Source: an uncultured archaeon
Lineage (GTDB): Archaea; Thermoproteota; Nitrososphaeria; Nitrososphaerales; Gagatemarchaeaceae
Length of the DNA stretch: 64,000 nt
Direction: 5' to 3'
Assembly: GCA_963799775.1 (NCBI GenBank)
Contig: CAWCYD010000003.1
Location: forward strand, 1,312,001 to 1,376,000
The first letter of the stretch is position 1; every line of letters begins with the position of its first letter. A program made the position numbers and the translations under genes. Below are positions 30,040 to 54,007 of the stretch, piece by piece. The notes under the pieces were generated by a model, which was not told where the DNA came from, ran no database searches, and saw only the letters and a program-made list of their open reading frames with translations.

Positions 30040-30046
30040 AGGATTC

Positions 30047-30924: not shown

Positions 30925-30925
30925 T

Positions 30926-31693: not shown

Positions 31694-31882
31694 TGTAGCG
31701 AGACTTAAAGCATCAGCCGCTTATTAAACGTTGCCGGAATCGTAATCTGAATGATACATTTCCGCTTCTTTGGACTGTAATGGCTTGCACTCCGTATACC
31801 TCACTTTGGGGTATGCCTGAAGAATAGCTTCTTTTCGTCAAATAGACTGATTCTCTCCTCTTTTCTCCCCCTCACCTCGCTA

Positions 31883-32105: not shown

Positions 32106-32108
32106 GAG

Positions 32109-32483
32109 CTATGTACGGCTGTCGATAAGGAACTCGCGCAGAGTCTTGACGGTCACTTGACCGTTCACGAGCTTCTTGCGATACTCTTCGGCCACCGCCG
32201 TATTGGGGACAAGGACGACGAATGGCTTGGTGGCGAACTTTGTGATCCGCTCCTGAAGGTCATCGACCCTTCGCTTGAGCCCCGTCTCGATTTCGATGTA
32301 CGCCCCGCTAGTCTCGATATCAGGGAGGGCCTCGCCTGAGGAAGCAACGTGCACGACGCCCTTGCATCCCTCGACCGCCTGACCCAGCATCCACTTGTGG
32401 AGCGGGCCCTCGTTCTCGTTGGTGCCCTTGGCAAAATACAGGGAGACGGTCTCTCCCGACTCCACATCGTCGAACCGCTGCAC
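32109..32483 (-). CDS. PD-(D/E)xK-like domain, in frame with the upstream ATPase
   Basis: PLHKWM...LPDIE...YIEIETG; begins directly after the ATPase TAG in the same frame. Confidence 0.6.
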   Translation of the reverse strand: MQRFDDVESGETVSLYFAKGTNENEGPLHKWMLGQAVEGCKGVVHVASSGEALPDIETSGAYIEIETGLKRRVDDLQERITKFATKPFVVLVPNTAVAEEYRKKLVNGQVTVKTLREFLIDSRT

Positions 32484-33995
32484 CTAAACCTCTCCCGCCT
32501 TCAGGAGCTTGAGGAGCACGTCCCTGAGTCTGAGCTTCGCGGCGTCCTTGGCGAAGTGATATCTTTCCTCAACCAACGAGGCGAGCCCAGAGACCCAGAC
32601 GACCCCACCGCGTTCGAGCTCCTCCTCGACTATCCCTCGATAGTCTACGGGGGCCTGCGGTTGAGGCTCTTGGGCGATGTCCACTGGTTCGACCGGCCGC
32701 ACCTCCATCTTCGGGAGAGCGTCCATGTCCACACGGAAGACCGGGACAAGACCGGCTTCGCCAACGCGGAACGCGAGGTCCACGAACTCGTACGGCTGAA
32801 GGTGCCTCACGATCCAGGGATAAGCCGGGTCTATCTTTCCCAACGCTTCAAGCTCCTTCGGGACGGTGGTGTGGAAGGCCAATTCCGTTCCGGACTGCCT
32901 GAGGTTGTCGGGTATGTCCGTCTGATTCTGGGTCGCCGTGAGCAGTGTTCCGAGCTGCCTTATCTCCAGCATGATGGTGTCGAGGATCGTCCGCGCGTCA
33001 ATCTGGTAGAGTTGCGTCAGCCGATGAACCTCGTCTATCACGATGGCGATGCCCTGACTGGTCATTGCGCCTTGGAGCGGTGCTACCCGTTGCGTCAAGG
33101 AGTTCCATGTCTGCCTCAAGGCTATCTCTGCGTAGAAGGTCTTCGCGGCCTCGTCAAGGCGTGAGAAGTCCAGAACGACATCCTTGGTGAGGTCCATGTT
33201 GAACGCGCCTTCGCCCACCGCCAGGCTCCCTGTCTGCTGCTGGATCAGGGCGAGCGCCTCCAGTTGAATATCTGTAGCCTTTCTCTCCATCCGTTTGAGG
33301 TTCGCCCTGAATTGGCTCCAGTCGTTGCTTTGACCGGCAACACTCTTGACGATCGCCCTGGCCTGCGAGAGCATGATGCCCCTCAGGTTGGCGGGGAAGG
33401 CGAGAGCGTATGCTGTCGAGAGCGCGTCCGCGTCCTGAAACGGGTTCGGGATGTGCCTTGATACGTCCACCACCGGATAGGGGAGGCGAAGATGCGTGTC
33501 GTTCGGCTTGAACGAGAAGACGATCTTGGGCGCTCTCACCACAGTCAGAAGAAGGGTCTTCGTGAGCTCGCTCTTGCCCATGCCTGAGCGCCCGCAGACC
33601 ATCACCAAGGGGTTGCCCTTGCTTGAGATGTACTCGTCGAAGTTCACGTAACACGGGTCGATTCTCCTCTTCAGGGGAGTGTCTCGCCTCTTCTCGCCGA
33701 CCTTCTCTCTCCTCCTCTCCACTATTGGACGGCCATCCTCGTCCTCTCCCACGTTCGCGTTGTAGTAGTGATAGACAGGCTCGGTCAGCGAGACGTAAGC
33801 GACCTGCCTTATCGGGGTCCTTGCGAAGCGCTTGAGGATCCTGGTCCTCATCACCAGGAACGCTACCACGGCGGCAGGAACGGTCGCAATCAGAACGAGG
33901 GGGAACTTGCGGGTAGCGACCAGCAACACCGTGAAGAATGTCAACAGGGCGATGAGCTTGTACCTGTCCCCTCTGGTGAATGTCGATACGTTCAT
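32484..33995 (-). CDS. Membrane-anchored HerA/FtsK/VirB4-like ATPase
   Basis: Two N-terminal TMs, Walker A GRSGMGKS, Walker B IVIDEVH, EIRQLG..LTATQ; ATG 33995 overlaps the upstream stop (ATGA). Confidence 0.82.
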   Translation of the reverse strand: MNVSTFTRGDRYKLIALLTFFTVLLVATRKFPLVLIATVPAAVVAFLVMRTRILKRFARTPIRQVAYVSLTEPVYHYYNANVGEDEDGRPIVERRREKVGEKRRDTPLKRRIDPCYVNFDEYISSKGNPLVMVCGRSGMGKSELTKTLLLTVVRAPKIVFSFKPNDTHLRLPYPVVDVSRHIPNPFQDADALSTAYALAFPANLRGIMLSQARAIVKSVAGQSNDWSQFRANLKRMERKATDIQLEALALIQQQTGSLAVGEGAFNMDLTKDVVLDFSRLDEAAKTFYAEIALRQTWNSLTQRVAPLQGAMTSQGIAIVIDEVHRLTQLYQIDARTILDTIMLEIRQLGTLLTATQNQTDIPDNLRQSGTELAFHTTVPKELEALGKIDPAYPWIVRHLQPYEFVDLAFRVGEAGLVPVFRVDMDALPKMEVRPVEPVDIAQEPQPQAPVDYRGIVEEELERGGVVWVSGLASLVEERYHFAKDAAKLRLRDVLLKLLKAGEV

Positions 33996-34156
33996 GCGAA
34001 TTCCTCCCTCAGAAGTGCCTGCCACGTCCCGAGCTTCGCCAGGTAGTCCCTAGCGTCCAACGAATCAGGCTCTGACAGCAGCACCTTGCGCAGAATCGAA
34101 TCATTCGGCAGAATTCTCGCCGCCAGCCTCTTCAGTGAGCGAATGTCCACGATCAT
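33992..34156 (-). CDS. Small hypothetical protein, 54 aa
   Basis: MIVDIRSLKRLAARILPNDSILRKVLLSEPDSLDARDYLAKLGTWQALLREEFA; GGAGGAGG upstream; translationally coupled to the ATPase. Confidence 0.75.
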   Translation of the reverse strand: MIVDIRSLKRLAARILPNDSILRKVLLSEPDSLDARDYLAKLGTWQALLREEFA

Positions 34157-34300
34157 TCTCGTCCTCCTCCAATGGAATGATGGGAAGGCCTCCGCTCAAA
34201 TCATTCGGCCGAGAATTTCGTCAAGCCAAGGGATGACGAGGTCAAAACGAACCCGAAAAAGTGTTAATTCGAAGGGTAGAGGCGTCAATTTCGAAGCCGC

Positions 34301-35134
34301 GTGGGTTCACTGGCCGATGAGCTGAGTGAGGGGGTGAAGGAGGGTCGGATCAGAAGGAGCGAGATAGGCGCGTACATGAGAGGCAAGGGATTCCAGGACT
34401 CTGCGACAAGCAGGGCGCTCGGGGCGGCCGTCAAGAAGTGGGGTTCGCTCGCGAAGGTCGAACTCGCGTCAGGTCACGACTTGGACTCGACCGATGAGGC
34501 CTACGTGCCATGCGGCGGCGGCCACGCAGCCCTTGGTGAGCTCCTGAGAAGACCCGCGACCGACAGGTTCGCCTTCAGACTTGGTTCCTCGTTCCGCGGA
34601 GTAAGCAGATACACCGAATCTCCGATTCCTCTCTACGTCGACGTGGTCGCGAACGAATCTTCAACGAACTGCAAGGCGAAGGTCAGTGCGATTCCATCTG
34701 GGAACAGAGAGGCGCAGATCTACTGGCAGCCACAGGATGCATTCTCCTTGGACTTGAACCAGGGCGAGACTGCGAGGGCAGAGTTGTTTCAGGTGGACAA
34801 CCCGGGACGAAGGGCGATAGCGAACTATCAGAGCGCGCTCGCAGGCGAGACAGACTCCAGGGCAATCGGGCACATCGAAATGAGGCTGAAGCAGACGTAC
34901 GAAAGGGCGGCAAGGCAGAAACCGGTGATCTACGTGCGGACACCGGACGTCGAGGGAAAGAGGATAAACGTCAGTGACACCGTCAACGTCCTAGTTCTCA
35001 CCGTCTATTCCACGGGCGGGTTGAGCTACGCGCCGTTCCTGGTCCTGAGAAGGAACCTCGAAGAGAGCCAGGCACTGCCGATTCTGAGGTACGAATCGAG
35101 GCGCGCTCAATGGCCTGCAAGGACGCAAGGATAG
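34301..35134 (+). CDS. Hypothetical protein of the element
   Basis: 277-aa ORF, divergent from the ATPase operon; no motif recognised. Confidence 0.55.
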   Translation: MGSLADELSEGVKEGRIRRSEIGAYMRGKGFQDSATSRALGAAVKKWGSLAKVELASGHDLDSTDEAYVPCGGGHAALGELLRRPATDRFAFRLGSSFRGVSRYTESPIPLYVDVVANESSTNCKAKVSAIPSGNREAQIYWQPQDAFSLDLNQGETARAELFQVDNPGRRAIANYQSALAGETDSRAIGHIEMRLKQTYERAARQKPVIYVRTPDVEGKRINVSDTVNVLVLTVYSTGGLSYAPFLVLRRNLEESQALPILRYESRRAQWPARTQG

Positions 35135-35182
35135 GGCTTCTGCTGCAACGCGCTTGGTTGATGGATGACGTTCAGGGCCGAG

Positions 35183-35653
35183 TCAAGCTTTGGGCCAGCT
35201 GTGAACTCCGCTGACCAGGGCGAGGAGGAGGAAGGCGTTGAACACGTAGAACCATGGGCCAAAGACCCACGTAGGAATCACGAAGTCTATCACGAGGAGG
35301 CCGAAGAGGATCACTAGCATCGACTCGATGATGCCGGTCTGCTCCACCGACTTGGACGCCTCATACTCGCGCTTCATCTCGCGCGCAGACACTTCGCGCT
35401 CGACGTAGTATTGGAAGACCTCCTTAGGGTCGTCGTACTTGTCGGGGCCCAGGGCGTCGTAGAGAGTTCTCTTCTCGCCATCTGACAGGACGAGATAGGC
35501 CTGAGAGACCTCCTTGAACTTCTCCTCCGCGTCGGGAGACTTGTTCCTGTCGGGGTGATACCTGATGGCCAGCCTCCTGTAGGCTTCCTTAATCGTTTCT
35601 CTCGATGCCGTCTTGGCGACGCCGAGAACATCGTAAAAGTCGTGCCTCTGCAT
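35183..35653 (-). CDS. J-domain (DnaJ-like) protein with C-terminal TM helices
   Basis: DFYDVLGV...[17 protein letters not shown]...FKEVSQAY; hydrophobic C-terminus. Confidence 0.9.
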
Positions 35654-35664
35654 GCCTTTCGCCC

Positions 35665-36954
35665 TCAGAACGGCACCCTGACTATCGCCCCGCCGTCAGG
35701 AAGCGACGCCACGTACTCGTATCCCTGGCCGATGAAGGACCTGACCTCTTGGATTGGAATCACCTTCTGCCTTGAGCCGTTGCCCGTCATCATGCCGACC
35801 AGCCTCTGTCTCACAGCGTTCTGGAGCTCCTCGTCGCTCATCTCTTCGAGGCTCATCTTCTCGACCTCCTCTTTCTTGAAGCCCGCGACAACGAGAAACT
35901 GCTCCCTCATTGTCTTCTTGATTTGCTCCTCGCTGGCTGACTCCGCCTTTGTTGAAAGGAGGGGCTCGCACTTCGCGTAAACTGCCCTCATCTCCTCTAT
36001 CATCGTAGGCAGGAGCCTGCCCTTGTTGGTCGAATACCTGGCCTCGATGTCCCCCTTGTGCCCCATCAGGAACTGGAGGTATGGGTGAGAAATCAAGCCC
36101 TTGGACTCCGCCACTATCATGTTGGTGTCGCAATAGGCCCTCAGGACGTAGGGCCTCCAAGTGAATCCCGCTTTGGTTATCGCCTCCTTGATGTCCCGGG
36201 TGACCAGGATGGTTCTCAGGAAGGCGTTCTTCCTTACGCCTCTCGGGTCGAACGCGAGCAGAGGGCTTTGAGGGGTCAGCTTCTCGCCGGATTTGGTCCT
36301 TTCCTGAATGTACTCCTGAATGTAGGTTATGGCCTCGGCCCCCACGAACGTAAAGTATGGATGCCTTGCCTTGCTAAGCGTTCTCCTGACGAGCAGGATC
36401 GCCCGAACCTTCTCGAACTCGACGCTGCCGCCCGATACCTTCGCCTCCGCAAAGTCAGCGAGCCTGATGCCGTCCGTTCCAAGGTAGTCGCCAAGACTCT
36501 CCGGCCTCAGACCGCTGAACGCCATCATGGCGATTGAGACTCTGCCTCTCGGCGATGCCATCCTGAGAATCCTCGAAAGCTCGTTCTTGCTCGGGATTCT
36601 TTCGTTGGCGATTGTCGGTGTCTCGGAGGTGCCCTTGATGTTGACCTTGAGCTTGACGCCGAGGTTGTTGTAGTAACTCCAGGAGAGGACGACCTTCTTG
36701 AAGCGCTCGATGTAGGAGCCCGCTTTCCCGTCTTTCTCCATCTTCCCGATAAAGTCTGTGAACTCGTCGCGGAATCTCTTGGACTTGGCCTCAGCGAGTA
36801 TCTTCTTCGGGGTCGTCCCTTCCAGGGCGCAGTAGAGTCCCATCGTTCGAAGATAGACTGTGGCGGTTATGATCGACTTGGCTTCGAGGTTCTCAAACCA
36901 CCTGCGGACGTCCTGGTCGTCCAGAAGGTGCTTGTACTTGCTCCCGGCGGGCAT
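35665..36954 (-). CDS. Tyrosine recombinase/integrase
   Basis: AFSGLRPES (R), LSKAR (K), [17 protein letters not shown] (H, Y); starts about 50 bp from the tRNA 3' end. Confidence 0.93.
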
Positions 36955-37006
36955 GTCTCCCCTTGGGAACTCGGTTTCTAATAAGGGATTCTCTTAAGAG
37001 TTTAAG

Positions 37007-37106
37007 TGGGCCGGAAGGGATTCGAACCCTTGACCTCTCGATTATCAGTCGAGTGCTCTAGCCAAGCTACCCGTCGGGATAATCCACGACTCTGAGCTAC
37101 CGGCCC
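37007..37106 (-). tRNA. tRNA-Ile(GAT) with a 25-nt D-loop intron (37067..37091)
   Basis: GGGCCGG/CCGGCCC acceptor stem, CTCGA-CTGATAA-TCGAG anticodon arm, AAGGG-TTCGAAT-CCCTT T-arm; removing the insert restores a normal D-loop. Confidence 0.92.
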
Positions 37107-41169: not shown

Positions 41170-42078
41170 ATGGGACTATACACGAGGATGGCGGCCCTGT
41201 TCTTCGTACTCACGGGACTGCTGATGCTGATAGGGTACTTCATCGGACTCTACTTTGGCGACCCTCTCGCCTTCATGCTGCTAGGCCTTGTCCTCGCAGG
41301 CGTCGTGAACTTCGTCTCCTACTACTTCAGCGACACCATAGTCGTGAAGATGAGTAGGGCTAGGATCATCCAGCCCAGCGACAACCCGACCCTCTACTCG
41401 ATAGTGCAGAAGGTGGCCCAAAGGGCGGGAATCCCCACCCCGAGGGTCGGGATCGTCAGCTCGCCCCAGCCCAACGCCTTTGCGACGGGGAGAGGCCCGA
41501 ACAAGGCGGTCGTGGTCGCGACCTCCAGCATTCTCCAGACTCTGACGCCCGACGAGCTGGAGGCGGTGATCGGCCACGAGATAGGCCACGTCGTCCACAG
41601 GGACGTGCTCACCTCGAGCGTCGCCGCGACCATCGCCGGCGTGATCTCGTACATCGGGAACATCGCGCTCTTTTCCATGATGTTCGGGTCGTTCGGGAGC
41701 GGGAACAACAAGCAGGGCTCGAACCCCATAGCCCTCGTTGCCGCCATAATCCTGGTGCCGTTGGGCGCGACGTTCGTCCAGCTGGGGATCTCACGGGGCC
41801 TGGAATACAACGCTGACGAGTACGGAGCCAAGCTGACCCAGAACCCAGGGGCGCTCGCCTCCGCACTTCAGAAGATTGCCGCAAAGGCCCAGACAAGGCC
41901 CATCTCCGCCGCGGGGAATCCCGGAGGTTCTCCCTCGCCCGCCACCGCCTCGCTCTGGATAGTGAACCCGTTCAGGGGGAGCACGATGCTCGAACTCTTC
42001 TCGACCCACCCCTCCATCCAGCACCGGGTCGAGAGGCTCCGACAGATGGGCCAGCAGATGGGCGTCTACGTCCAGTAG
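41170..42078 (+). CDS. htpX: Zinc metalloprotease HtpX (M48)
   Basis: PNAFATGR, HEIGH, EYNAD, LASALQKI, FSTHP. Confidence 0.93.
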   Translation: MGLYTRMAALFFVLTGLLMLIGYFIGLYFGDPLAFMLLGLVLAGVVNFVSYYFSDTIVVKMSRARIIQPSDNPTLYSIVQKVAQRAGIPTPRVGIVSSPQPNAFATGRGPNKAVVVATSSILQTLTPDELEAVIGHEIGHVVHRDVLTSSVAATIAGVISYIGNIALFSMMFGSFGSGNNKQGSNPIALVAAIILVPLGATFVQLGISRGLEYNADEYGAKLTQNPGALASALQKIAAKAQTRPISAAGNPGGSPSPATASLWIVNPFRGSTMLELFSTHPSIQHRVERLRQMGQQMGVYVQ

Positions 42079-42095
42079 ACGTAGCGACCGGCGCC

Positions 42096-43486
42096 CTATG
42101 TCGCTCTGAGCGCCTTTAGATGTTCCATGCTCCGGGCGATGTCCACGGCGCTCCCCACGTCGTCTCTGTGACGGAACTTCCGGCCGAGCGCGCTGACGCC
42201 GCTCAGGGAAATCTCGTGCGCTTCGCCGAGGGTCGGCGCGATCCCTGTCACGGCGACAGAACGCGACGTGCCCATCAATATCTTCCCACCCTTGCCAAGC
42301 CTGAGGTCCATGGGGAAGAGGCGGAGGTCTCCGCCGCTCTTCTTCTCGAGCGCGAGGGCACGCGTCAGACTGACCGCCTCCTGGGCAGATGGCGGCGCCC
42401 CACCCGTCCCGTAGGCCCGCGGGACCGCGCAGGTAACCACCGAGGCCATGTTGGAGAATCTTATCCCCTTGAGGTGTCCCTTCGATCATCCTGTAGCAGA
42501 CGTCGACGTAGTCGTCGAGCATGGTGGTGAGGATGCTGATCTGCTCTGTGTTCCCTCCCCTGCTGTTCCTCTCGAGTATCTTGAACCCACTGCTCGTGTG
42601 CATCAAGGCGTCGTAAAGGACGATGCCGCGGAGGCCCGGGTTCGACCCGCGCCCCTTCCACTTGTCGAAGGCCCTGCGCTCGAGCTGGACCACCTTGTCC
42701 CACTCGGATGAGGGAAGGAACGGCAACACCTCCCTGGAGTCCCTGTAGCTGCCCATTCCCCCCGTGAGCTTTCCCTTGTCCCCGTCGAGGGCGCGCTTGT
42801 AGTCCCTCGTGAGGGGGGCGGGGACGAAGTGCCGGCCGTCGCTGAAGGCGTGGAAGCTCGACTCCTCCCCTTCCACGCGCTCCTCCACGACGACCCTTCC
42901 CTTGGAGTAGACGTTGCGGAAGAACTGCAAGGCCTCTTCCTCGGTCCGAAAGTCCTTGCCCCATACACCCACCCCCGCTCCCCTCGCTGGGGCGTCTGGC
43001 TTGATCACGAAACCCCTGCGATTCTCCGATGCGAACTTCTTGAGGTCGTCCACCGCCTCCCGCTCGCTCGAGTATCTCGACGGGTCGAGTGACCCTGTAG
43101 CGCGGGTTCGCTTCGGGGCAAATCTCCTCGAACAGGAGGCGCTGGTCGGCCTTGCTCGCCTCGACCGCGAACTCCTTCGTGACGCAGAGCATCTGGATGC
43201 CGGTCTCCTTCTCGAGGACGTCCCTACCGCCTGCAGTGACAAAGTCCTCGGTGTCTGTGAGACCGAATGCGATCTTCTTCTTGTGCCGGGACGCGAACGT
43301 TACTATCTCCGCGACATTAAGGTCAGGGATCACCTTGTGGACCTTCGCCCTCTTCGAGTTCAGGGGGTTGACCTGCTTCTCAGCGACGTAGAACTCGGGC
43401 CTGTAGCTCTCGCTCCTCGCGAACGTGTCTATTATCGCGGCCGAGCTGAGACACTTCGAGACGATGAGGATGCCTACCTTGTCCAA
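42096..43486 (-). CDS. purD: Phosphoribosylamine-glycine ligase-like ATP-grasp protein (frameshifts near 43090 and 42470)
   Basis: VEASKA, VIKPD...G.GV, VEERVEGEE.S, DYKRALDGDKG..TGGMGSY. Confidence 0.7.
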
Positions 43487-43540: not shown

Positions 43541-43750
43541 TGGTGGGACGGGAGAGAATCAGCAGGTATACTTACGGTTCTCGACCCAGATGACGCGCCC
43601 TCGCCTCGTCTAGTGTTCATTGCGCCTCCGCCGGGGCATGTAGGTAAATTTGGTGGGCCGGGAGAGAATTGGCAGGTTTAGTTACGCGACTCGACCCAGC
43701 TGACGCGCCCCCTTCTCGCATAGGGTCCAATGCGCCTCGGCCGGAGCATG
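43541..43750. repeat. Two diverged tandem units with 110-bp period, each starting with the tRNA-Val 3' end
   Basis: Unit A 43541..43650, unit B from 43651; 43653..43671 matches 50956..50974 exactly (19 bp); shared CTCGACCCAG-TGACGCGCCC and end motif. Confidence 0.88.
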
Positions 43751-43793
43751 CATGCTCCGAAACCGACACTGTCCTCTCGCGGGGATGCGGGGA

Positions 43794-45019
43794 CTAGACC
43801 GGCAAGCATGTGTCATTTGAACCAATCAATGAAGGGTTCGCATCGCCCTCGAAGTTCAGGTCGGGGAAGGCCAGGAGATGCCCCGAGGTCGCCACGTAGA
43901 ATTCGTTGGTGCTGGGGTTGTAGGCAACCAATTGTGGCGAGCTCGGGAGCGAGTACATGGTGAGCAGGGCTCCGGACGTTCCGTCGTACACCAGCAGGTA
44001 GTCGTAGTTCTGCGGGACCATGGCGACCTGGTTCGCCGAAGGAACCACGGTCATGCCGAGGAAGGGGCCGCAAGTGTCAGGGTCCACGTGGAAGATCGTG
44101 CCCCCGTTGGTTCCATTAAGGGCGACGAGCTCCCTTGCTCCAGAAGCGTAGACTATGTTCGTCGCCGGGTTGGAGGTCATGGTCGTGGAGTACGCCGAGT
44201 TCAGGTGAACGGTGGCGACCAGGCTACGGCTCGTCTCGTTGACTATCGACACGACCGCGTCGCAGTCAATGCCGATCTGGTCGCACCCGTCGGCATACAC
44301 CATGTTTGTCATGGGATTGACTGCCAGGTTAAAGGCCCTGAAACCAAGCGACACGTTTGACACCAGGGAGCCCGTCTGGACGTCGACGCCAAGGAGACTG
44401 CCATTATGGCCTGCGGGCCCGGGTTCCCCCCCGCGGAGCCGTAAAGGATGTGAGTGGATGGGTCGTAAGCGAGCGCGCCCTCGGGGGAGTCGAGCGGAAG
44501 CTCGCGCACGATTGCGTTCGTGGAGCCGTTGATCTCGGCGACCTCGCCCTTGACGGGCGCCCCGTCGTTGAAGAACTCGACCGAGACGAACACGATGCCT
44601 GTGGGGTTGTCGACGGCGATTCCTCCAGTGCCGCTCGCTGGCAGTGTGACGTTCGCGATCGCTGCTTGCGACGACGCGTCTAGGACGGTCTGAGTGAACC
44701 CGTCAACGATGTAGACTCTGCTGATGTTGGGATTGACCGCGATTGTCTCCGCGTACGGATCAGGAGATTGTCCGATAGTTATGTTCGCTGTCTCGACGCT
44801 CGCGACCGGAATGGGCTGACCGCTAGCTACGCTTACGAAGGAGGTAGAGGTGCTGGTCAGAGTGGACGTCGAAGTCGAGGTGCTGGTAGAGGTGATAGTC
44901 TGAGTGGATGTCGAGTTGAGCGTCTCGGTGCGCTGGGCTTGGATGCCGAGTTGGTAGCCAACCCCTAGACTCGCTGCGACCAAGACTATGACAACCGCTG
45001 CGACGATTGCGCTCCTCAT
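43794..45019 (-). CDS. Membrane-anchored YncE/YVTN-like beta-propeller protein, frameshift near 44390
   Basis: N-terminal TM, S/T linker, repeats IAVNPN..RVY, IAVDNPTG.VFV, LAVNPMTNMVY, VAYNPSTNEFYV. Confidence 0.8.
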
Positions 45020-45183
45020 AGCGCCTCAGGATGAAGCGTGCGCGCTCCCTATTGAACCCGATAGAACAGGTCTCCTAGCGCGCGGGCTCCGCCAAGCATG
45101 TCAAAATGAAGTACGCGGGGCTTTGCCATACACAGGGTTCATTGCGCCTCCGCCAGTGGATTTTAGCAGCAGAGTGGCCCAAC

Positions 45184-46929
45184 TCATCCGCAATCGTAAA
45201 GGGCTGTCAGGCCTTCATAGTCGCTGCCCGCGTACACCGTCAGGGTTGCGTTCGTGCCGTAAGCAACCACCTGGCGATTTCCGTTCTCCCACGCCATGAA
45301 TGTGCAGTTCCCCTCGTTCTGCTGCACCGACACGGCGTATTCCTGCCCATAGGTCAGGTCACTAAATGTGACTGACGTGTATCCCGTTGCTACGGTCGCT
45401 CCTGAGATGCTGAGAGACACTGCATAGCCGTAGATCAAGTGGTTTGGGTCGTTATCTGCTGCGGCGATGCCGATGCCTTGCGGTAGCATCCTCACTGTCG
45501 CGACGACACTCTCTGTCGCAGACGCCACGACTGAGAGAGGCTCGTAGGGGCCGCAAGGAGAGTATACGTCCCCGTTGGCGGAGTCGAATACCGCAGGTTC
45601 GGCACTGCACGAGACGGTCACATTCGCTATGACCGCATTTGCGGTCTCAGATATCACGGAGATCGACTTGGGGAGGGCACCCAAGGGGCCTGAAAGCCCT
45701 CCTAAGGCAGAGTCAGCGATGTAGACCCTGCCATCCAGGGAATCTAACGCGGGGGTCGTAGGACCAAACCCGACAGTGATGGTAGCAACCAGTGAATTGT
45801 TCGTGGTAGATATCACGGAGACGGTACCAGGATAAAAATCAGGATTGCCGTAGTTCGGAACGTAGATGTTCCCGTTGGTCGGGTCGAGCATAGGGAAACT
45901 AGGATCGGTGCCAACCGTGACGTTGGCGATGATGGCGTTTGAGGCTCCTGAGACTACCGACTCGACGTTCTGTTTGGAGCCGGAGGTGGTCACATAGATG
46001 TTCCCGGTTGCGGAGTCGAAGAGCGGCGGGCCAATCGGAGACCCGGGCAGGGACACGCTAGCAATCACCGTATTGCTATTGCCCGAGAGTATCACGAGGC
46101 TGTCGTTGGTGAGGGGCACGTAGACGTCACCGTTTGACGGGTCAGAGACCGCTTCTCCAGGGTCGTGACCAACAGGAATCGTGGCGATAACAGAGTTCGT
46201 GGTTCCAGATATCACCGACACACTGCCGTTGTCCGCGTTGGGGACGTAGATCTCGCCGTTGTAGGAGTCGAAGGCGGGTGTCAGAGGGTTGGTTCCCACT
46301 AGCAGATTCGCCACAACGCCATTCGTTGTCCCAGACACCACTGAGACTGTGTCCCCGTCACCGTTGGGCACGTAAAGGTAACCGTCGAAGGTGTCGAGGA
46401 CAGGAGTCTGCGGCCAACTTCCGACGGTGACCGCCCCCACCAACTCGTTCTTGACGGTTGACACCACCAAGAGCGCATCTCCCCCATCTTGAGGCACGTA
46501 GAGGCACCCATTCATCGGGTCGAAGAGGGGTAGGGATAGCGAAGCAGGGATGTTTGTGTCTGTCACAACCGGCCGGGTGTTGGTGGAAGGCGAATAGGAA
46601 GTCGCGCTGACCCTGGTCTCTGTGGGGGCGCATGCATCGGCGGTCAGTTCAGTAGTCGAGACCGTTCCGTTGACGTATCCTGACGACTCGCTCGTGGTGG
46701 TCGAGGTACCCGGGATCGTCTGACTAGCGATTTGGCTGCTCGAAGTGCCGACCTGATTCGAACTCGTGCTCGAGGATGGCGGCGCCTGGCTCGATGTGCT
46801 ACCCGATGAAGTTGAGAGGCCGTTCGGTTTGGCCTGGAACTCCAGAGGCAGCGACACGAGTAGAAGGACAACTAGGAAGATGGCGGCTTGCGCAACTGCG
46901 AATGCGCCTTCTTTCCTTCTCATCACCAT
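45184..46929 (-). CDS. Membrane-anchored YVTN-repeat beta-propeller protein
   Basis: MRRKEGAF plus TM, S/T linker, about 8 repeats of P.FD..NG.IYVP...VSVISG.TN.VIA. Confidence 0.88.
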   Translation of the reverse strand: MVMRRKEGAFAVAQAAIFLVVLLLVSLPLEFQAKPNGLSTSSGSTSSQAPPSSSTSSNQVGTSSSQIASQTIPGTSTTTSESSGYVNGTVSTTELTADACAPTETRVSATSYSPSTNTRPVVTDTNIPASLSLPLFDPMNGCLYVPQDGGDALLVVSTVKNELVGAVTVGSWPQTPVLDTFDGYLYVPNGDGDTVSVVSGTTNGVVANLLVGTNPLTPAFDSYNGEIYVPNADNGSVSVISGTTNSVIATIPVGHDPGEAVSDPSNGDVYVPLTNDSLVILSGNSNTVIASVSLPGSPIGPPLFDSATGNIYVTTSGSKQNVESVVSGASNAIIANVTVGTDPSFPMLDPTNGNIYVPNYGNPDFYPGTVSVISTTNNSLVATITVGFGPTTPALDSLDGRVYIADSALGGLSGPLGALPKSISVISETANAVIANVTVSCSAEPAVFDSANGDVYSPCGPYEPLSVVASATESVVATVRMLPQGIGIAAADNDPNHLIYGYAVSLSISGATVATGYTSVTFSDLTYGQEYAVSVQQNEGNCTFMAWENGNRQVVAYGTNATLTVYAGSDYEGLTALYDCG

Positions 46930-46935
46930 CTCGAC

Positions 46936-49144
46936 CTATCCTGCGACCACGGTGGTCTTCGCGGTCGCCGTCGAGTTGTCCGCATATAGGGCCACGAAAG
47001 TGATGACGTAAGAGTCTCCCGCTATCGCCTGCGGAGACTGGAACGTGCCCTTGTACTCGTAGATCACGTCGAGCTGCCCTATCCCGTGCCCCAGGTTCCC
47101 CTCGTCCGTCCCGTTGACGAAGAGCTGCAGGCTCTTGACGGGCTGTGGCCCCTGGAAGTAGATCTCACCTGTGAGATAGGGGCTCGGATAGAGGCAGTTC
47201 GAGGGGCAGAGCGAGAAGCTTTGCAGGGTGACCTGCTCGACGTCGAAATGGACGATTGCGAAAGCGCCCCACTCGTCGCCCGCCAAGACGGTGTAGACCC
47301 CCGGCGTGAAGGGTACGAAGGCGGAGCCGTTGTAAAAACCTTTGAAAGCGTTCGTGTACGACATCGCGTCTCGTTCTCCACCGCACCCGAGGATTATGCA
47401 CCCTTCGAGGGCACTGTTTATCGCCAGGTCGCTCGAAGCCTGGAACACGTAGCCAAAGACTTCTCCAGCTTCGAGCGGGCAGGTGTGTGGCGAGGAGTAC
47501 AGGGTGAGCCAATGCGACACGTCAGAGAAGTTGTTTGCAGCGTAGTACCCTGTGGCGATCGCCCACCCCTCCGGCAAGCCCACGATTCCGCACGGACCAT
47601 CCCCGAGTGGAGTGCCGGCCGGCGAGTGGAGCGAGCGGGGCGGTCCCAGCAGGGGGAAGCTGTCGGAGGCCGTGACGTTGTTGTCCTGTGTAAGGGCGTT
47701 CTGCTCGTCGACCGTGATGGATATGGGTTGGCCGGTCTGGATGTCCGTCGAGCTGGTCGAGATGCTGAGCACCAATCCGTCGACCGACGGAGAAGAGGCA
47801 GTTCTTGCGACGGTCGGTCCGATCACGGACAAGTCACCCGTCGAACCTGAGGCCCCGTTCGCGGGCACGTAGATGTCGCCGTTCTTAGGATCGTATGCGG
47901 GAGTGAGTGGGTTGGGACCGACCTTGAGGGTCGACACAACGGGGTCAGCTATCGGCGAAATGGGGTACGCTCCAGAGACGATGTCGACTGTGTCCCCCGT
48001 CCCGCTTGGGACCACGACGTCTCCGGTCGCCGAGTCGATTGTCGGCGTCCGGGGGTCGTCTCCCACCGTGAAGTTTCGTATGAACGTGTTCGATCTATCC
48101 AACAGCATCCAGAGGCTCCCGTGGAGGGTTCCCTCTTCAATGGCGGGCACGTAGAGCTCTCCGTTCCGAGGGTCGAACGCGGGCGTCAACGGCCGGTTGT
48201 CGCCCATGCTCACCTCGGCTACGGCCTTGTTGGTCACGCTCGACAACGTTGTGATGGAGTGTCCGCTGATGTCTGGGAAGTACAGGTCCACCGCTCTCGG
48301 GGTCGAGGGCCGGCGTGCTCGGGTTGGGGACCGCGATGCTTGCCACTATGGTGTTGTTGGCGCTCGAGATCCGGTAGACAGTGGAGTTGACTTGGTCTGG
48401 GACGTAGATGTCGCCGTTGTAGGAGTCGAAGAAGGGAGACCCCGGAAGCTGCATGCTCAACGTCGCCAGGACGGCGCTCGTGGTCCCGGAGACTACCCAC
48501 AGAGTGCCCTCGGTCCCCCCGGTCATGTTGGGGGATGACAGATAGACGTCGCCGTTGGATGCGTCGAAGACCGGCGGACCAAGGAACACCTGGTGGCTGC
48601 CTGGAAAGGTCACGTTGGAGATCACCGAGTTGGTCGCCCCCGAGACGACCAGCAGCATTGCAGGCGGTCCGCCGCGGCCCAACGGCAAGGTCCCGGAATG
48701 CTGCACGGTCGCGTATATGTCGTCATTCTCGGGGTCGAATGCCAGATTCTGTTCCCCATAGCCAAGCGTCACCGTGGCTATGACCGCGTTCGATGTTCCT
48801 GAGACCACCGACAGCTGGTTTCCGAAGAGCGTGCTTGGGACGTACAGGTCTCCGTTCGCCGGGTCGAAGAGAGGCGTCCCCGGAGTGGCCGTGACAGATA
48901 GGGAAGTAAGAACTCCGTAGGTCGAGTTCTGGGTAGGAACAAAGGAGGTGTTAGTGCCTGTCGAAATCGTGCTAGTCGTCGAGGTGGTCTGCTCACAACA
49001 TTGGCTGGACGACGATTTGGTTGTTTGGACAAACAAAAGTGGAGTGATTACGAGGCTCGCCAGGATTAAGACCGCCACGATGACGAGTGCCGCGGCTACG
49101 AATCTGTAGCGCCCATGGAGATTCCGGGACGTAATCGGATCCAA
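46936..49144 (-). CDS. Membrane-anchored YVTN-repeat protein with Cys-containing C-terminal domains, frameshift near 48295
   Basis: ORFs 48137..49144 and 46936..48291 join within a repeat (LDPESG/DLYFP). Confidence 0.82.
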
Positions 49145-49306
49145 TGTTGGCCACAGGTGAGCTGGAATTGAGATGTTTCGCGATTAATACCTTTGTCCGA
49201 ACCCGAGATTCTCGATCGCGCGCGCTGGTCCTGGCCGGATTGCGAGGCCTTAGTTTGATTGATTTCGTCCGGCAACGGGTTCGGCCCGAATCACAGCTCT
49301 TCTTGC

Positions 49307-49349
49307 CAAACGGAGCATAGTCTAGGCTATTTCTGGAGTGGGCCGGGAG
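49307..49349. repeat. 43-bp exact direct repeat (second copy 50925..50967) including the tRNA-Val 3' end
   Basis: CAAACGGAGCATAGTCTAGGCTATTTCTGGAGTGGGCCGGGAG present at both sites. Confidence 0.93.
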
Positions 49350-49413
49350 GCGCACGGCGCCATGAGCGCTTGGGGCCCAAGCATTTTATTGGACCCAACC
49401 ATTTCGCCCAAAC

Positions 49414-49677
49414 ATGGAAGAAGGCCCACTTTCGAGGATACTCGCGTTTTCCCTTATAGGCGGTCTGGCCTTGTTCCTTGGGGTGTTGCTCCTCTTGTAT
49501 GGGTTTGGCGGATGTTGCGGAGGGCAGGGATTATTGACAACTAACTCTGGCCCTTGCAGTTGTGCCACCATTACGCCCTCAGGTCCGGCATTGTCCGCCC
49601 CCTTCATTCTCGCAGGGGCTGGTCTCCTCGCAGGAGCGATGTGGACAGGATTGCAGGTTCGCCGAGAAAATCAATGA
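49414..49677 (+). CDS. Small two-TM membrane protein with Cys-rich loop
   Basis: TM-GGCCGG...PCSC-TM, 87 aa; the only + strand gene in the island. Confidence 0.55.
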   Translation: MEEGPLSRILAFSLIGGLALFLGVLLLLYGFGGCCGGQGLLTTNSGPCSCATITPSGPALSAPFILAGAGLLAGAMWTGLQVRRENQ

Positions 49678-49942
49678 GGCGGAATCACCCTTTGATTGGA
49701 CAGAGCCCGCTTGAGAGCCCTGAGACTATTAATAATTCGAACACGAGTGGGATGGTTGCGAGTCGGGGCGGCGCCGAGCGGCAATGGCACGCTTTCTATC
49801 ATCTTCGGGAGCGACAAGCACGGTAGTTGCGAGTCAGACTGCCTAGATGGACGACTCTTTTAGCGAGGAGAAGGTCCGAGGAGAGCAAGCAAAGCAGGGC
49901 ATTCGCAATGTACAGGTTTCATTGCGCCTCCGGGGCATTTCA

Positions 49943-50810
49943 TCATGCGACTTCGAAATACAGGAACACTGCCTGACCCCACTGATCATCCAACGCGACT
50001 GTGTACACACCCGGAACGAACGCCTTCGTGAATAGATCGTCTCGCAGATTTTGGGCGCTGTTCAGCACCGAATATGACGAGCTGTTCACCAGGTCATAGG
50101 CAGCTCTTCGTCTCGATAATGGCTGTCGTGTTTACGGGACCATAAGTCGTGTCGCCGACGCCATCCGGTGCGTCTTCAGTGAGGTTTGCCTTGAAGCTGT
50201 TCGGGAGAAGGATGATGTCGTGGACCGCCCCAAACTCCATGCAGGGTCCGGCCGCGTAAAGGAACGGGTGGTCGGCGATGCTGGTTATGTTCGAGCTTGT
50301 GTAGTATCCGTTGAGCACCACGATCTCCAGCGGCGTGCTCTCGTGAGGATCGGGCATGCACTGACCCCAGAAGGCGATCGGCACGCCTTCGAATGCCCAG
50401 GTATCGTTTGAGACGGATTCGCTGTTCGGTCCGGGCGAGATGCTCGAAAGCGTGGCGTTCATCGCGAGCGTCTGGCCGACCTCCAGCCTTGTTGCGTTGA
50501 TAGAGAGCGACAGCCTGATGTCGCTCGAGTCGGTGGTAGAATTGCCGCTGATGAGGGGGATGTCTGGCAGAGTCAGCGTAGTCGAAGTCGATGAGGTTGC
50601 TGAGCTTGTGGAGGAAGAAGTTTGAGAGCTTGTTATCTGTTGGGTGGATGCCTGAGAGGAAGAAGTGGTGGAAGCGGTTTCACTCGGCTTGTTGGCGAGA
50701 GCGCCGAGCGCGTACCACGATATCGCGCCCGCGGCTAGCAGGATTGCTACGGCCATGGCAACGACTTTGGTTGTCAAGAAGAACCCGTCGAGATCGAAGG
50801 GACTGGCCAC
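49943..50810 (-). CDS. Membrane-anchored S/T-rich surface protein, frameshift near 50100
   Basis: ORF 50094..50810 continues in another frame as ...AFVPGVYTVALDDQWGQAVFLYFEVA*, matching FTPGVYTVLAGDEWG in the 46936 protein. Confidence 0.8.
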
Positions 50811-50956
50811 TATTGAACCTCATCGTTAGCAGTCTTGGTAGAGGGCAGCGAATCTGCTGCCACAGGGAACTTGGAGCGATAGCGGTTTTTGCCCCAGTCT
50901 CGCCCCAAATGGAACTCCTTTTGTCAAACGGAGCATAGTCTAGGCTATTTCTGGAG

Positions 50957-51051
50957 TGGGCCGGGAGAGAATTGAACTCTCGACCTTAGCGACGCTCTTC
51001 GCGTATCCGCCGTGTCAGAGCGGCGTCCTGACCAGACTAGACGACCGGCCC
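50957..51051 (-). tRNA. tRNA-Val(GAC) with a 20-nt intron at 44/45 (50986..51005)
   Basis: CCGCT-CTGACAC-GGCGG anticodon arm; insert forms a bulge-helix-bulge; T-arm GAGAG-TTCAATT-CTCTC. Confidence 0.92.
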
Positions 51052-51117: not shown

Positions 51118-51644
51118 TCACCGAGCCTTCTGGTAGAATTCCAGAGAGAGCAAGGTGTCCGGCGTGACTATAGCAGGTCTTGCTGACATCATTGTCGCGA
51201 ACTCGGCGACGGAGACAAACCTACCTTCCTGGGATTCGTTGCTAAGCGTTATCGACTTGTCCGACGTGCCCTCAAATACGGTGATGTACTCCCATTCTGT
51301 TCCGCCGGGTATTTTCCATCTTGGGGTGATGAACTTCCCCAGAGGAAGAATGTCGCACTCGATACCCGGCTCTTCCCTGATCTCCCTCCTCGCCCCTACG
51401 ATGTATGATTCGCCGGCGGAGACGTGGCCTGTGCAGGAAGCCGTCCAGAATCCTGGATAGAATCGACGGTCGTTGGCGCGCTTCTGCAGGTAGATCTCTC
51501 CCTTCGAGTTTGAGACGAAGGCGACGATGGCTCTGTGGAGAAGACCCTTGTCGAGGCATTCGCGGCCTGGTCGTCTGTCCACGACGACGTCGTTCTCGTC
51601 GACAACATCGAAATACTCTTGCGTGTCCTGTTCCTTGTAATCAT
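51118..51644 (-). CDS. NUDIX hydrolase, type-1 IPP isomerase-like (start frameshifted or uncertain)
   Basis: YFDVVDENDVV, LLHRA, LQKRA...PGFWTASCTGH, ARREIREE, EWEY. Confidence 0.75.
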
Positions 51645-51762: not shown

Positions 51763-52701
51763 GTGGCCGTAGTGCCTCTCGGTGGGACCGAGTCCATCGT
51801 CGCGGTGGACAGGAAGTCCGGTGAGATGGGGGCCGCGGTGGTCTCCCAGTCCTTCGCAGCAGGGTCGCAGACAATCTGGGCGGAGCCCAGCGTAGGGATA
51901 GTGCTCGTTCAAGGGTCCGTGGAGCCTACCTATGGGCCTCTCGGGCTCGCGCTCCTCAAAGGAGGCAAGACTCCGCAGCATGCGCTCAAGTCACTGCTGG
52001 CGACCGACCCGCGTCCGGGGGTCAGGCAGGTGATGATGATGAACTCGAGAGGAAGGGTCGCCGCCCACTCCGGCAAGGGATGCCTGCCCGAGTCTGGCTA
52101 CCAGGCAGGAAGGGGTTTCTGCGTCCAGGCCAACTTTGTCGAGGCCAAGAGGGCGTGGAGGTCGATGGCAGCGGCGTTCAGGGCGGAGAAGGGGACGCTC
52201 GCGGAGAGGCTCGTCGCCTCGCTGGAAGCAGGCGAGCGGGCCTCGAAGGGGCCCAGGAGAGGAGGTGGGGCGAGGTCGGCAGCCGTCCTGGTCGTGGCTG
52301 CGACGTCGACGAACACGCCGTGGGAGGGGAGGTACCTCGACCTCAGGGTGGAGGACAGCGACAACCCGCTGAAAGAGCTGAAGGCCGCGCTGAAGGTCAA
52401 CGAGGCCTACGAGCGCGCCTCGAACGCCGAGGAGTTTCTCGGGAGGGGCGACATCGCAAAGGCAGAGAAAGAGTTCGGGAAGGCGATCTCCCTTGCGAAC
52501 GGAAGCCCAGCTCTCAAGATGAGGTTCGCCCTAGGCATGATTCAGGCCGGCGAGGAGAAGAAGGGAGCGTCTCTGATGAAGAGCGCCTTGGGGAGGGGGC
52601 ACGACGCCAAGGCATTGATGCGCGAGATGTCCTCTCGCGGGATAATCAGGGGCGGGACCGGCAAGAAGGAAAAGGCGCGAAGCAAGACTTCTCAGACTTA
52701 A
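51763..52701 (+). CDS. DUF1028-like (Ntn-hydrolase-like) protein with TPR-like C-terminus
   Basis: SIVAVDRKSGEMGAAVVS, RQV, AAHSG, QAN, RSAA, DLRVED..NPLKEL. Confidence 0.8.
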   Translation: MAVVPLGGTESIVAVDRKSGEMGAAVVSQSFAAGSQTIWAEPSVGIVLVQGSVEPTYGPLGLALLKGGKTPQHALKSLLATDPRPGVRQVMMMNSRGRVAAHSGKGCLPESGYQAGRGFCVQANFVEAKRAWRSMAAAFRAEKGTLAERLVASLEAGERASKGPRRGGGARSAAVLVVAATSTNTPWEGRYLDLRVEDSDNPLKELKAALKVNEAYERASNAEEFLGRGDIAKAEKEFGKAISLANGSPALKMRFALGMIQAGEEKKGASLMKSALGRGHDAKALMREMSSRGIIRGGTGKKEKARSKTSQT

Positions 52702-52737
52702 TAGCCAGTCAGAGAGGAAGAGACCCCAGAAGAAGCG

Positions 52738-54007
52738 ATGCAGGGGAGTTCAGAGCTTTCAGGTTTCTACAAGCTCAGTATGCAGGAGAGGCTCGAGCTC
52801 CTGCGGAAGCTGGCAGGATTGACCGAGGAGGAGGCCGCTACCTTGGCGAACACGGGAGGCCTGCCGGGCGAGGTCGCGAACAGGATGATCGAGAACGTCG
52901 TCGGAGGGATAACGCTCCCCCTCGGGATGGCGACCAACTTTCTGATCAATGGGAAGGACTACGTCGTCCCGATGGCGCTGGAGGAGCCGTCGGTAGTCGC
53001 GGCGGCCTCGAACGCTGCGAAGATCGCTCGATTGAAGGGAGGGTTCAAGGTCACCAACACAGGCCCGGTGATGATAGGGCAGATCCAGACGGTGAGGGTG
53101 CCGAATCCCAAGGGGGCGGCCAGGAAGGTGTTGGCGAAGAAGAAGCTGCTCCTGGAGAGGGCGAACGCCCAGGACCCGATGCTCGTCTCCCTAGGAGGCG
53201 GGGCGAAGTACCTCTGGGCCAGGGTCATCAAGACGCTCAGGGGGCCGATGGTGATAGTCGAGCTCTTCGTGAACTGCGGCGACGCGATGGGAGCCAACGC
53301 CGTGAACACGATGGCCGAGGCGGTGGCGCCCATGGTCGAGGAGATAACGGGGGGGAAGGTGTACCTGAGGATAATCTCGAACCTGGCCGACAGGAGGCTC
53401 GTCAGGGCGACCGCCATCTTCGAGAAGGAGGCGCTGGGCGGGCCTGAGGTCGTCGAGGGCATAGTCTACGCCTACGCCTTCGCGGAGGCCGACCCCTACA
53501 GGTGCGCGACCCACAACAAGGGCATCATGAACGGGGTGATCGCCGTCGCACTCGCTTGCGGTCAGGACACGCGGGCGCTCGAGGCTGGTGCGCACAGCTT
53601 CGCCTCTCGTTCCGGCGCATACAAGCCACTGACCGTCTGGAAGAAGACAAAGGACGGAGACCTCATGGGCATCCTGGAGATGCCGATGGCCGTCGGGCTG
53701 GTGGGGGGAGCAGCGAAGGTACACCCGGCAGCAAAGGCCAACGTCAAGGTCCCTCGGGGTAAAATCCGCGGTCGAACTGGCCAACATCATGGGTGCGGTC
53801 GGGCTCGCCCAGAACTTTGCGGCGCTCCGCGCGCTCTCAGCAGAGGGGATCCAGAGGGGGCACATGAAATTACATGCCAGAAACATCGCCGCGTCAGCAG
53901 GGGCGACGGGGAAGATGGTGGACCAGATAGCCGACCAGCTAGTGGCGGAGAAGAAGATCAGGATGGACAGGGCCAAGGAGATCCTGGACAGCCTGTCCAA
54001 GACGTAG
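52738..54007 (+). CDS. Hydroxymethylglutaryl-CoA reductase, class II, frameshift near 53755
   Basis: [60 protein letters not shown]. Confidence 0.93.

Follow-up and report, generated by a model that had tools for sequence, protein, structure and literature searches.

An integrase-free island at the tRNA-Val(GAC) 3' end of a Gagatemarchaeaceae archaeon and its relation to a cassette array at the 23S rRNA gene

The DNA analysed here, 64,000 nucleotides from an uncultured archaeon of the family Gagatemarchaeaceae (GenBank assembly GCA_963799775.1, contig CAWCYD010000003.1, positions 1,312,001 to 1,376,000 of the forward strand; hereafter the window, the genome itself being denoted G000), carries an island of surface-protein genes between purD and the gene for tRNA-Val(GAC). 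Genome comparison identifies window positions 43561-50955 as a lineage-specific insertion that arose from serial site-specific integration at the 3' end of tRNA-Val. Copies of a short motif from the 3' trailer of 23S rRNA are interspersed in the island, and one of its cassettes is found again in a long array of motif-bounded cassettes just downstream of the 23S gene of the same genome. The favoured and, on balance, probable reading is that integrase-less elements were inserted in trans at tRNA-Val and were loaded with cassettes exchangeable with those of the 23S-anchored array.

Insertion at the tRNA-Val(GAC) 3' end

The junctions of the island and its fixed neighbours are listed below (window positions and strand; the basis of each assignment is given in parentheses).

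50956-51051, minus: tRNA-Val(GAC) with intron, 96 nt (ARAGORN)
50902-50967, minus: junction J0 (attL-like), the last 12 nt of the tRNA and the 54-nt left arm of the element; copy 1 of a 66-nt repeat (86% identity, 43-nt exact core)
49284-49349, minus: junction J1, a 12-nt partial tRNA 3' end and the left arm; copy 2 of the 66-nt repeat, at the boundary of elements E3 and E2 (repeat comparison)
43651-43750, minus: 100-nt unit 2, with a degenerate site (43724-43736), a 47-nt right arm and a 19-20-nt tRNA 3' end with CCA (junction J2; repeat comparison and 16-mer scan)
43541-43640, minus: 100-nt unit 1, with a site (43616-43629), the right arm and a tRNA 3' end with CCA at 43541-43560 (junction J3, attR-like; its flank is the native spacer of five relatives)
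41791-43486, minus: purD with an apparent assembly frameshift, the conserved distal neighbour of the island (GARS_A domain, E = 2.3e-27; synteny)

Beyond tRNA-Val(GAC), on the minus strand, lie three more partial copies of its 3' end. The nearest belongs to a 43-nt exact repeat (49307-49349 and 50925-50967) in which 12 nt of the tRNA are followed by 31 nt from beyond its end; the repeat widens to 66 nt at 86% identity, and its 43-nt core occurs only twice in the entire genome. The two distant copies, at 43651-43670 (19-20 nt identical to the tRNA-Val end) and at 43541-43560 (about 17 nt, with one mismatch), are each followed by CCA and form the ends of a tandem pair of 100-nt units (43651-43750 and 43541-43640) that are 81% alike. 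A 16-mer of the tRNA end, allowed up to two mismatches, was found three times in the window against 0.11 expected, a number reached by none of 100 shuffles. The 47-nt right arm was also considered as a derivative of the tRNA-Val 3' half and rejected as such, the local alignment scoring no better than 10-20% of shuffles.

The 3' end of the present tRNA-Val(GAC) continues as CTC, at a place where relatives encode CCA. Gene purD was located in 22 of the 23 genomes of the genus, and the region upstream of it was compared in 15 relatives. In five of these (G006, G008, G016, G017 and G018), tRNA-Val(GAC) lies directly upstream of purD, without motif copies and with an encoded CCA; the spacer aligns to G000 from just past the 43541 copy to the purD start, and the gene across tRNA-Val (open reading frame, ORF, 52080-53447) is syntenic in all five. 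The remaining ten have lost synteny and show no tRNA in the stretch compared, which for one of them is 4.3 kb only. Wherever tRNA-Val(GAC) was found (seven relatives), CCA is present and extra 3'-end copies are absent, and the island block was detected in none of 30 other genomes of the family that were searched. Since the native flank resumes right after the 43541 copy, 43541-43560 is the original tRNA end, now 7.4 kb away from the gene; the CCA-less end that the gene has at present arrived, on this comparison, with the inserted DNA. Thus, the island shows the flanking direct repeats of the tRNA 3' end, the rebuilt gene and the empty site in relatives that mark elements integrated at tRNAs, while an integrase encoded by the element itself was not found among the island ORFs with Pfam or NCBIfam.

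The structure of the junctions suggests a composite island, built by at least two and probably three successive insertions into the tRNA-Val(GAC) 3' end. Each incoming element would have brought a tRNA end (core of 12-19 nt), rebuilding the gene and pushing the earlier end or element toward purD. Element E3 (49350-50955) would comprise gene A, a site copy and a small ORF; element E2 (43671-49337) genes B and C, a site copy, cassette D and the right arm; and element E1 (43561-43650) would be a 110-bp remnant or an empty platform. The left arm is common to E3 and E2, and the right arm to E2 and E1, as would be expected if related elements had integrated repeatedly at one core. As no element contains a recombinase, integration must have used an integrase encoded elsewhere; the short cores, together with the lack of an integrase in the island, point to a tyrosine integrase supplied in trans.

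The cargo of the island is as follows.

49943-50810, minus: gene A, anchored Ser/Thr-rich surface protein, 288 aa after reading through an indel at 50107 (translation)
49414-49677, plus (opposite to the tRNA): small ORF, 87 aa, with two hydrophobic segments (translation)
46936-49144, minus: gene B, anchored surface protein with YVTN-like repeats, 735 aa after reading through an indel at 48290 (translation)
45184-46929, minus: gene C, anchored YVTN beta-propeller surface protein, 581 aa (TIGR02276 and translation)
43794-45019, minus: gene D, inside cassette D; split by a frameshift in both the island and the array copy (translation and cassette comparison)

Each of genes A-D opens with a hydrophobic segment followed by a Ser/Thr-rich linker, and the YVTN repeats of gene C score 68.5 bits with TIGR02276 of NCBIfam (cut-off 27.85). 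The genes occupy nearly the whole island, with a left arm of 145 nt and a right arm of about 80 nt. No recombinase, replication or transfer domain was detected in the seven island ORFs scanned with both Pfam and NCBIfam; the Pfam scan additionally covered two small plus-strand ORFs at 49338-49677. Most of what an initial annotation of the window, made from its letters and ORFs alone, had described here is borne out: three additional tRNA-Val 3' ends, four anchored surface-protein genes on the tRNA strand, no gene for recombination, replication or transfer, and serial insertion at the tRNA-Val 3' end, which the empty site in five relatives and the resumed native flank now support. The comparison of the purD to tRNA-Val interval that it had proposed as a check yielded the empty site in five of 15 relatives and the block in none of the 30 other family genomes. 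The small membrane gene that it had placed with the others is present as well, but on the strand opposite to the tRNA.

Public reads bear on the assembly of the locus. Parts of it were recovered as short contigs in two of three soil-metagenome runs of one study, runs that may derive from the same sample as the assembly. One contig (43618-43877) crosses junction J2 and the tandem units with 0 differences, and another (49695-50321) is exact across the end of gene A and the adjoining site; the stretch 48840-49473, which includes J1, is covered by no short-read contig. At both 50107 and 48290, the assembly has one base more than the short-read contigs of run X1, so genes A and B are probably intact and their frameshifts are probably indel errors carried by the assembly. 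The split of gene D, in the island as in the array, falls at a run of G. A joint from 43639 to 45134, with 21 letters on one side, was considered as a trace of excision and set aside, as it joins two site copies and is expected from the repeat. No circle or excision variant was seen among these contigs, whose short length would hardly reveal one.

Two further observations concern the surroundings of tRNA-Val genes. The NUDIX gene at 51118-51582, between tRNA-Val and ORF 52080-53447, had no tblastn match at the tRNA-Val loci of seven relatives (the five with the empty site, G001 and G002) and may itself be a lineage-specific addition. In G007, a 15/16 copy of the 3' end of tRNA-Val(TAC) lies 176 nt downstream of that gene (L144, G007:C1:1291000-1303600, positions 12190 and 12366), a mini-insertion that recalls the 110-bp unit E1.

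The 23S rRNA trailer site and its cassettes

The copies of the tRNA-Val end and the motif of the 23S trailer constitute two different kinds of junction. The features related to the latter are listed here.

49887-49943, minus: 23S-trailer site copy, motif at 49918-49931, about 12 nt past the stop of gene A as read through its frameshift (82-86% identical to array copies)
45099-45163, minus: 23S-trailer site copy, motif at 45138-45151, 33 nt past the gene C stop; upstream boundary of cassette D (motif scan)
43718-45150, minus: cassette D, bounded by a site at both ends (genome comparison)

The motif TTCATTGCGCCTCC occurs exactly three times in the window, at 43616, 45138 and 49918; the expectation is 0.54 at up to two mismatches, and a count of three was reached by two of 100 shuffles. 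The copy at 43616 sits within the 100-nt repeat, and a degenerate fourth copy (43724-43736) is located 58 nt past the gene D stop. A search of the genome with the 100-nt units gave 23 matches, nearly all on the motif. When its 14-mer was used (at most one mismatch), 57 copies were found in the genome, 39 of them on the same strand at G000:C3:1867454-1911946 with a spacing of 390-2500 bp. This array, which lies outside the window (loci L009-L012), extends over about 45 kb and holds some 40 same-strand site copies, each bounding a cassette of about 1 kb.

The origin of the site is evident from its position. The single 16S-23S operon identified with Rfam lies just upstream of the array; the Rfam match to 23S rRNA extends to G000:C3:1867442, 12 nt before the start of the first motif. 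The 23S trailer, motif included, pairs with the leader upstream of 23S, and the motif that adjoins the 23S end is thus the 3' strand of the 23S processing stem. In BLAST comparisons with the 23S end and trailer, all site copies share positions from about +2 to +28 relative to the 23S end; these roughly 27 nt are near-invariant, whereas the flanks vary. Some 12 array copies also extend 47-48 nt back into the 23S end, where their left boundary is sharp, and partial 23S ends with the same -48 boundary are found in other genera of the family. Many of the array repeats share at least 75-90 nt with the native 23S end and trailer. Two statements of the initial annotation have to be revised in this light. 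It had taken the motif for the distal end of the individual inserted units, and the motif is instead the 23S rRNA 3' trailer, repeated across the host family; and of the three cargo units whose stops the motif was said to follow, two (genes A and C) are indeed followed by exact copies, but the third exact copy lies inside the 100-nt repeat.

The arrangement is not restricted to G000. The motif adjoins the 23S end in all four genomes examined (G000, G018, G014 and G007), in which the upstream flank of the rRNA operon is syntenic; the arrays of G018, G014 and G007 span about 30, 126 and 59 kb, respectively, with more than 50 site copies in G014. A 17-mer of the site is present in 19 of the 22 other genomes of the genus; two other genera of the family were represented by one genome each, and both have it. 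None of the 16 genomes from other families of the order gave a match, and a reversed-pattern control gave 0 everywhere. An exact 20-mer occurs in at least 90 stretches of genome_contigs. Among the matches listed, nearly all are metagenome-assembled genomes (MAGs) of Nitrososphaerota, Thaumarchaeota or Nitrososphaerales, including Candidatus Gagatemarchaeum, and their titles place the lineage in Group I.1c soil Thaumarchaeota. Rfam searches (E up to 1) of 20 kb of the array and of the island repeats returned no family, searches at gathering score of seven other loci returned none either, and no tRNA was called at 12 loci with other site clusters or integrases.

The cassettes between the sites behave as units. 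Cassette D is 92.7% identical over 1440 nt to an array cassette (G000:C3:1879536-1880973), and the homology starts at one site copy and stops inside the next, in the island and in the array alike. Array contents are nearly all different between relatives, and the shared ones are reordered: two segments are shared by G000 and G018, five by G000 and G007, and none by G018 and G007. By random placement, 3.9 of these seven segments would be expected to cross a site; none does, an outcome matched in 0.25% of trials and partly confounded by genes diverging more slowly than spacers. Two G000 copies of an integrase-bearing element share a site copy and differ in the sequence before it, one having two more site-bounded cassettes in 3.6 kb and the other 1.4 kb of different sequence. 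Accordingly, the tandem site-bounded cassettes (39 sites in 44.5 kb), varying and reshuffled among relatives, have the organization of integron or CALIN arrays (CALIN, cluster of attC sites lacking an integrase). Invariance and sharp edges of the 27-nt site, with cassettes between its copies, suggest that it is a recombination site. Cassettes would then move between site copies as modular cargo, consisting of genes followed by the site of about 27 nt, and the presence of cassette D in both places would make the tRNA-Val island a satellite of a 23S-anchored, family-wide platform.

The cargo of the array is diverse. Among 37 ORFs scanned, 26 have no Pfam match, and the matched ones include two PIN domains, VapB, Fic, GNAT, thermopsin, CorA, TBP (TATA-binding protein), an AsnC-type regulator and a DDE transposase. 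An N-terminal hydrophobic anchor is predicted in 16 of the 41 longest ORFs in and beside the array, eight of which also have a Ser/Thr-rich stretch, as do the proteins of the island. In 26 of 42 cassettes, the site and the longest ORF have the same orientation.

Other observations were made at the site-bearing loci. The TATA-binding protein paralogue (L011:10782-11414) and the thermopsin-family protease (L010:16058-17206) are both carried by array cassettes. In G018, a second, smaller site cluster (L045, G018:C3:362959-371556) lies far from the rRNA operon; it opens with a copy of the 23S 3' end that is 100 nt or longer, and a gene next to it is homologous to one of the surface-protein genes of the island (76% identity over 310 nt). 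The 23S rRNA gene of G000 carries a group I intron (L009:15517-15772), while that of G007 has a group I intron and about 1.1 kb extra near the 3' end, which shifted the Rfam end point. Upstream of the rRNA operon, the beta subunit of pyruvate-ferredoxin oxidoreductase contains an intein with a LAGLIDADG domain (L009:7454-9529). Finally, among the 20-mer matches listed, two contigs with the exact site (L072 and L101; 5.6 and 4.2 kb) are filed under Acidimicrobiales and Acidobacteria MAGs and are most likely mis-binned thaumarchaeal contigs.

Candidate recombinases and rival explanations

At least eight recombinases are encoded in the genome: five with the PF00589 domain and three full-length ORFs of the type found at 35665-36954 of the window, to which one partial copy of that type can be added.

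35665-36954, minus: divergent tyrosine-recombinase-like ORF, 54 nt after tRNA-Ile and outside the island; candidate trans-acting integrase (protein atlas, and identity to a PF00589 integrase)

ORF 35665-36954 has no match in Pfam, NCBIfam or PHROG. It scores 0.99 in the protein atlas to clusters annotated as 'site-specific integrase' and shares 31% identity (E = 2e-34) with one of the PF00589 integrases of G000, which marks it as a predicted divergent tyrosine recombinase; homologues occur in 20 of the 22 other genomes of the genus. It heads a probable integrated element at tRNA-Ile(GAT), 30051-37076, where a 14/16 copy of the tRNA-Ile 3' end is located at 30051-30066 and the G+C content falls to 0.43-0.49 at 30000-31500. 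A likeness of the island left arm to the leader of this integrase was considered and dropped, the alignment being weak. The homologue in G015, which lies on the purD contig, was likewise rejected as an occupant of the same site, being 23 kb from purD; it adjoins a tRNA that was read by eye as Val(CAC) and was not called by ARAGORN.

A second type of integrase has a C-terminal zinc ribbon and is found at the head of two related elements, both of which contain the site. These are located at G000:C3:116001-130000 (L014) and G000:C3:1378001-1392000 (L015), the latter about 9 kb past the end of the window, and the same pairing of zinc-ribbon integrase and site is seen in G020:C86. The L014 element, which is the one with the two additional site-bounded cassettes, adjoins a tRNA-like gene with a long or unusual intron or introns (L014:4640-4750), which was seen by eye and was called neither by ARAGORN nor by Rfam at gathering score.

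Several observations weigh against the favoured reading of trans-inserted elements with exchangeable cassettes. No recombinase could be tied to the tRNA-Val core or to the 23S-trailer site, and the 25 ORFs scanned beside the array showed no recombinase domain. The zinc-ribbon integrase was found in only ten of the 22 genus genomes and was not found in G018, which bears an array. A parent element with the island left arm was seen in none of the 30 other family genomes, and the left arm as an exact 36-mer had no match in genome_contigs; the island arms also have no other match within their own genome. The 20-nt site gave no exact match in viral_contigs, so no known free element carries it. The ten relatives without synteny between tRNA-Val and purD are uninformative either way, and the confounding of the site-crossing count has been mentioned. 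As for the topology, homologous recombination between repeats would produce the same one; the two 100-nt units may have arisen by tandem duplication in place instead of by separate insertions, and the E3/E2 boundary, where 54 nt past the core are shared, could have been produced by unequal crossing-over.

Of the alternatives, simple decay deserves most attention, though it is unlikely: the island would be the wreck of one or more once-autonomous integrative elements whose integrase was lost after entry, with no present movement in trans. Elements with integrases beside tRNAs do exist in this genome (ORF 35665-36954 at tRNA-Ile with the partial end at 30051, and the zinc-ribbon integrase of L014), the 110-bp E1 resembles a remnant, and remnant integrases with scattered partial tRNAs belong to the tycheposon islands as portrayed by Hackl et al. 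(bioRxiv 10.1101/2020.12.28.424599). However, no integrase fragment is found in the island, which genes fill almost completely, and its short arms leave no space for a lost gene. The left arm is unlike the left arms of integrase-bearing elements, E2 and E3 share it although both lack an integrase, and genes A and B are intact once the assembly indels are allowed for. Slightly more doubtful still is homologous recombination as the sole process, with the 23S and tRNA ends acting as conserved anchors for single crossovers and for loop-out between repeats, and no dedicated recombinase. The long stretches that many array repeats share with the native 23S end and trailer would suit such a process, as would the lack of a recombinase linked to the arrays and the fact that the anchors are the most conserved DNA common to the species. 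Yet it would account poorly for a core of about 27 nt (+2 to +28) that is near-invariant in all copies while the flanks vary, and for a left boundary at -47/-48 that is sharp and recurs across genera; the tRNA-Val cores of 12-19 nt are short for homologous recombination and typical of thaumarchaeal attachment (att) sites. Site-specific recombination at the 23S-trailer site is the more plausible process.

The two remaining explanations are far less probable. A classical integron remnant of the CALIN type would be consistent with the tandem architecture of short cassettes, with the share of co-oriented ORFs (26 of 42), with cargo such as PIN/VapB, Fic and GNAT proteins and 26 of 37 ORFs without a Pfam match, and with the predominance of CALINs among the archaeal integrons reported by Ghaly et al. 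2022 (PMC9668308). It is nevertheless very improbable: among the recombinases of the genome, the best scores with integron-integrase models are 55.5 bits with TIGR02249 (cut-off 265) and 26.1 bits with NF011946 (cut-off 435). The repeat unit forms no hairpin, the z-scores ranging from -0.59 to +2.10 in eight of eight folds (four units, both strands), and RNAalifold gave no consensus structure for it. The R'/R'' core of attC sites has the consensus GTTRRRY/RYYYAAC, and no such pair was seen in the repeat, which is instead a piece of the rRNA operon. An assembly artefact, in which the repeats would stem from mis-joining in a long-read MAG, can be given even less credit. The indel errors in purD and in genes A and B, and the stretch around J1 that lacks a short-read contig, would fit it, but short-read contigs reproduce 43618-43877 and 49695-50321 exactly, and arrays of the same kind are found in many independent MAGs.

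Relation to known systems and biological meaning

The tRNA part of the island resembles known serial-integration islands. Thaumarchaeal integrated elements have att sites with a median length of 17 bp, and elements with tyrosine recombinases form arrays by re-using one site (Krupovic et al. 2019, PMC6563490); in the tycheposon islands of Prochlorococcus, serial integration leaves partial tRNAs (Hackl et al.). As far as these accounts describe them, both share with the island integration at a tRNA 3' end, short att sites, displacement of older units by newer ones and the partial tRNAs left behind. Unlike them, all units of the island lack an integrase, and the cargo is subdivided by the 23S-trailer site that is common to a distant array; no rRNA target of integration is described in the main text of PMC6563490.

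Integrons and CALINs are similar to the 23S-anchored system in their long one-directional arrays of mostly single-gene, site-bounded cassettes, in contents that are shuffled between relatives, in cargo of toxin-antitoxin, GNAT and unknown proteins, and in satellite clusters without a recombinase. In contrast to integrons, no IntI was found, the sites are sequence-conserved direct repeats derived from the 23S 3' end and processing stem rather than attC hairpins, and the fixed end of the platform is the 23S gene instead of intI with attI. The label 'integron-like', given by the initial annotation to the island, therefore holds for the array architecture (about 40 site-bounded cassettes, one of them copied in the island) and fails on the tests for IntI and attC. 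Its further remark that no archaeal cassette system of this architecture was known has to be qualified: archaeal integrons have been described (Ghaly et al. 2022), and there are precedents for serial integration at tRNAs with partial tRNAs left behind. In PMC9668308, the longest archaeal array on one contig comprises 12 attCs, a number far exceeded by the approximately 40 sites of the array reported here.

Three other systems invite comparison. The staphylococcal cassette chromosome (SCC) and pseudo-SCC elements at rlmH, as well as the integrative mobile elements exploiting Xer recombination (IMEX) at dif, insert serially at one site and leave direct repeats between units, some of which are devoid of a recombinase and rely on one in trans. 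They occur in another domain of life and use sites, and presumably recombinases, other than those of the island; to our knowledge, neither SCC nor IMEX uses an rRNA gene end or builds arrays of some 40 cassettes. SAR11 bacteria reportedly have a hypervariable gene island between the 23S and 5S genes, directly downstream of 23S, for which we know of no repeated 23S-end copies between genes and no cassette structure. Literature searches brought up no account of arrays whose cassettes are delimited by pieces of an rRNA gene, although the supplements of Ghaly et al. 2022 and Krupovic et al. 2019 could list such loci. The main text of the genomics paper on Gagatemarchaeaceae does not mention integrases, integrons, cassettes, mobile genetic elements, the rRNA operon or genomic islands.

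The most conservative reading of the locus is a well-documented case of serial integration without an integrase, in which both the empty site and the displaced tRNA end have been identified. Beyond it, the 23S-anchored array may be a new kind of system, by virtue of a putative recombination activity at its site. A wider proposal is put forward tentatively, as a serious possibility short of a probable one: Gagatemarchaeaceae would carry an undescribed analogue of the integron, in which cassettes dock at the 3' end and processing-stem trailer of the single 23S gene. Such a platform would hold tens of cassettes with no linked recombinase, possibly with read-through from the rRNA promoter, and would have satellites that include the integrase-less elements at tRNA-Val. 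Anchored, Ser/Thr-rich surface proteins would dominate its cargo and so make it a device for varying the cell surface.

The present locus bears on the gain and shuffling of accessory genes in uncultured soil archaea, linking a tRNA island to a family-wide system in which a piece of the rRNA operon bounds exchangeable cassettes. Should the site prove to be the substrate of a recombinase, integron-style gene capture would have been invented a second time, independently and at the most conserved gene of the cell; the site would also be a short, defined marker with which to follow gene flow in Group I.1c Thaumarchaeota. Anchored proteins make up a large part of the cargo, with 16 of the 41 longest ORFs in the array region and each of genes A-D of the island, which suggests that the cell surface is varied, possibly in response to viruses or grazers.

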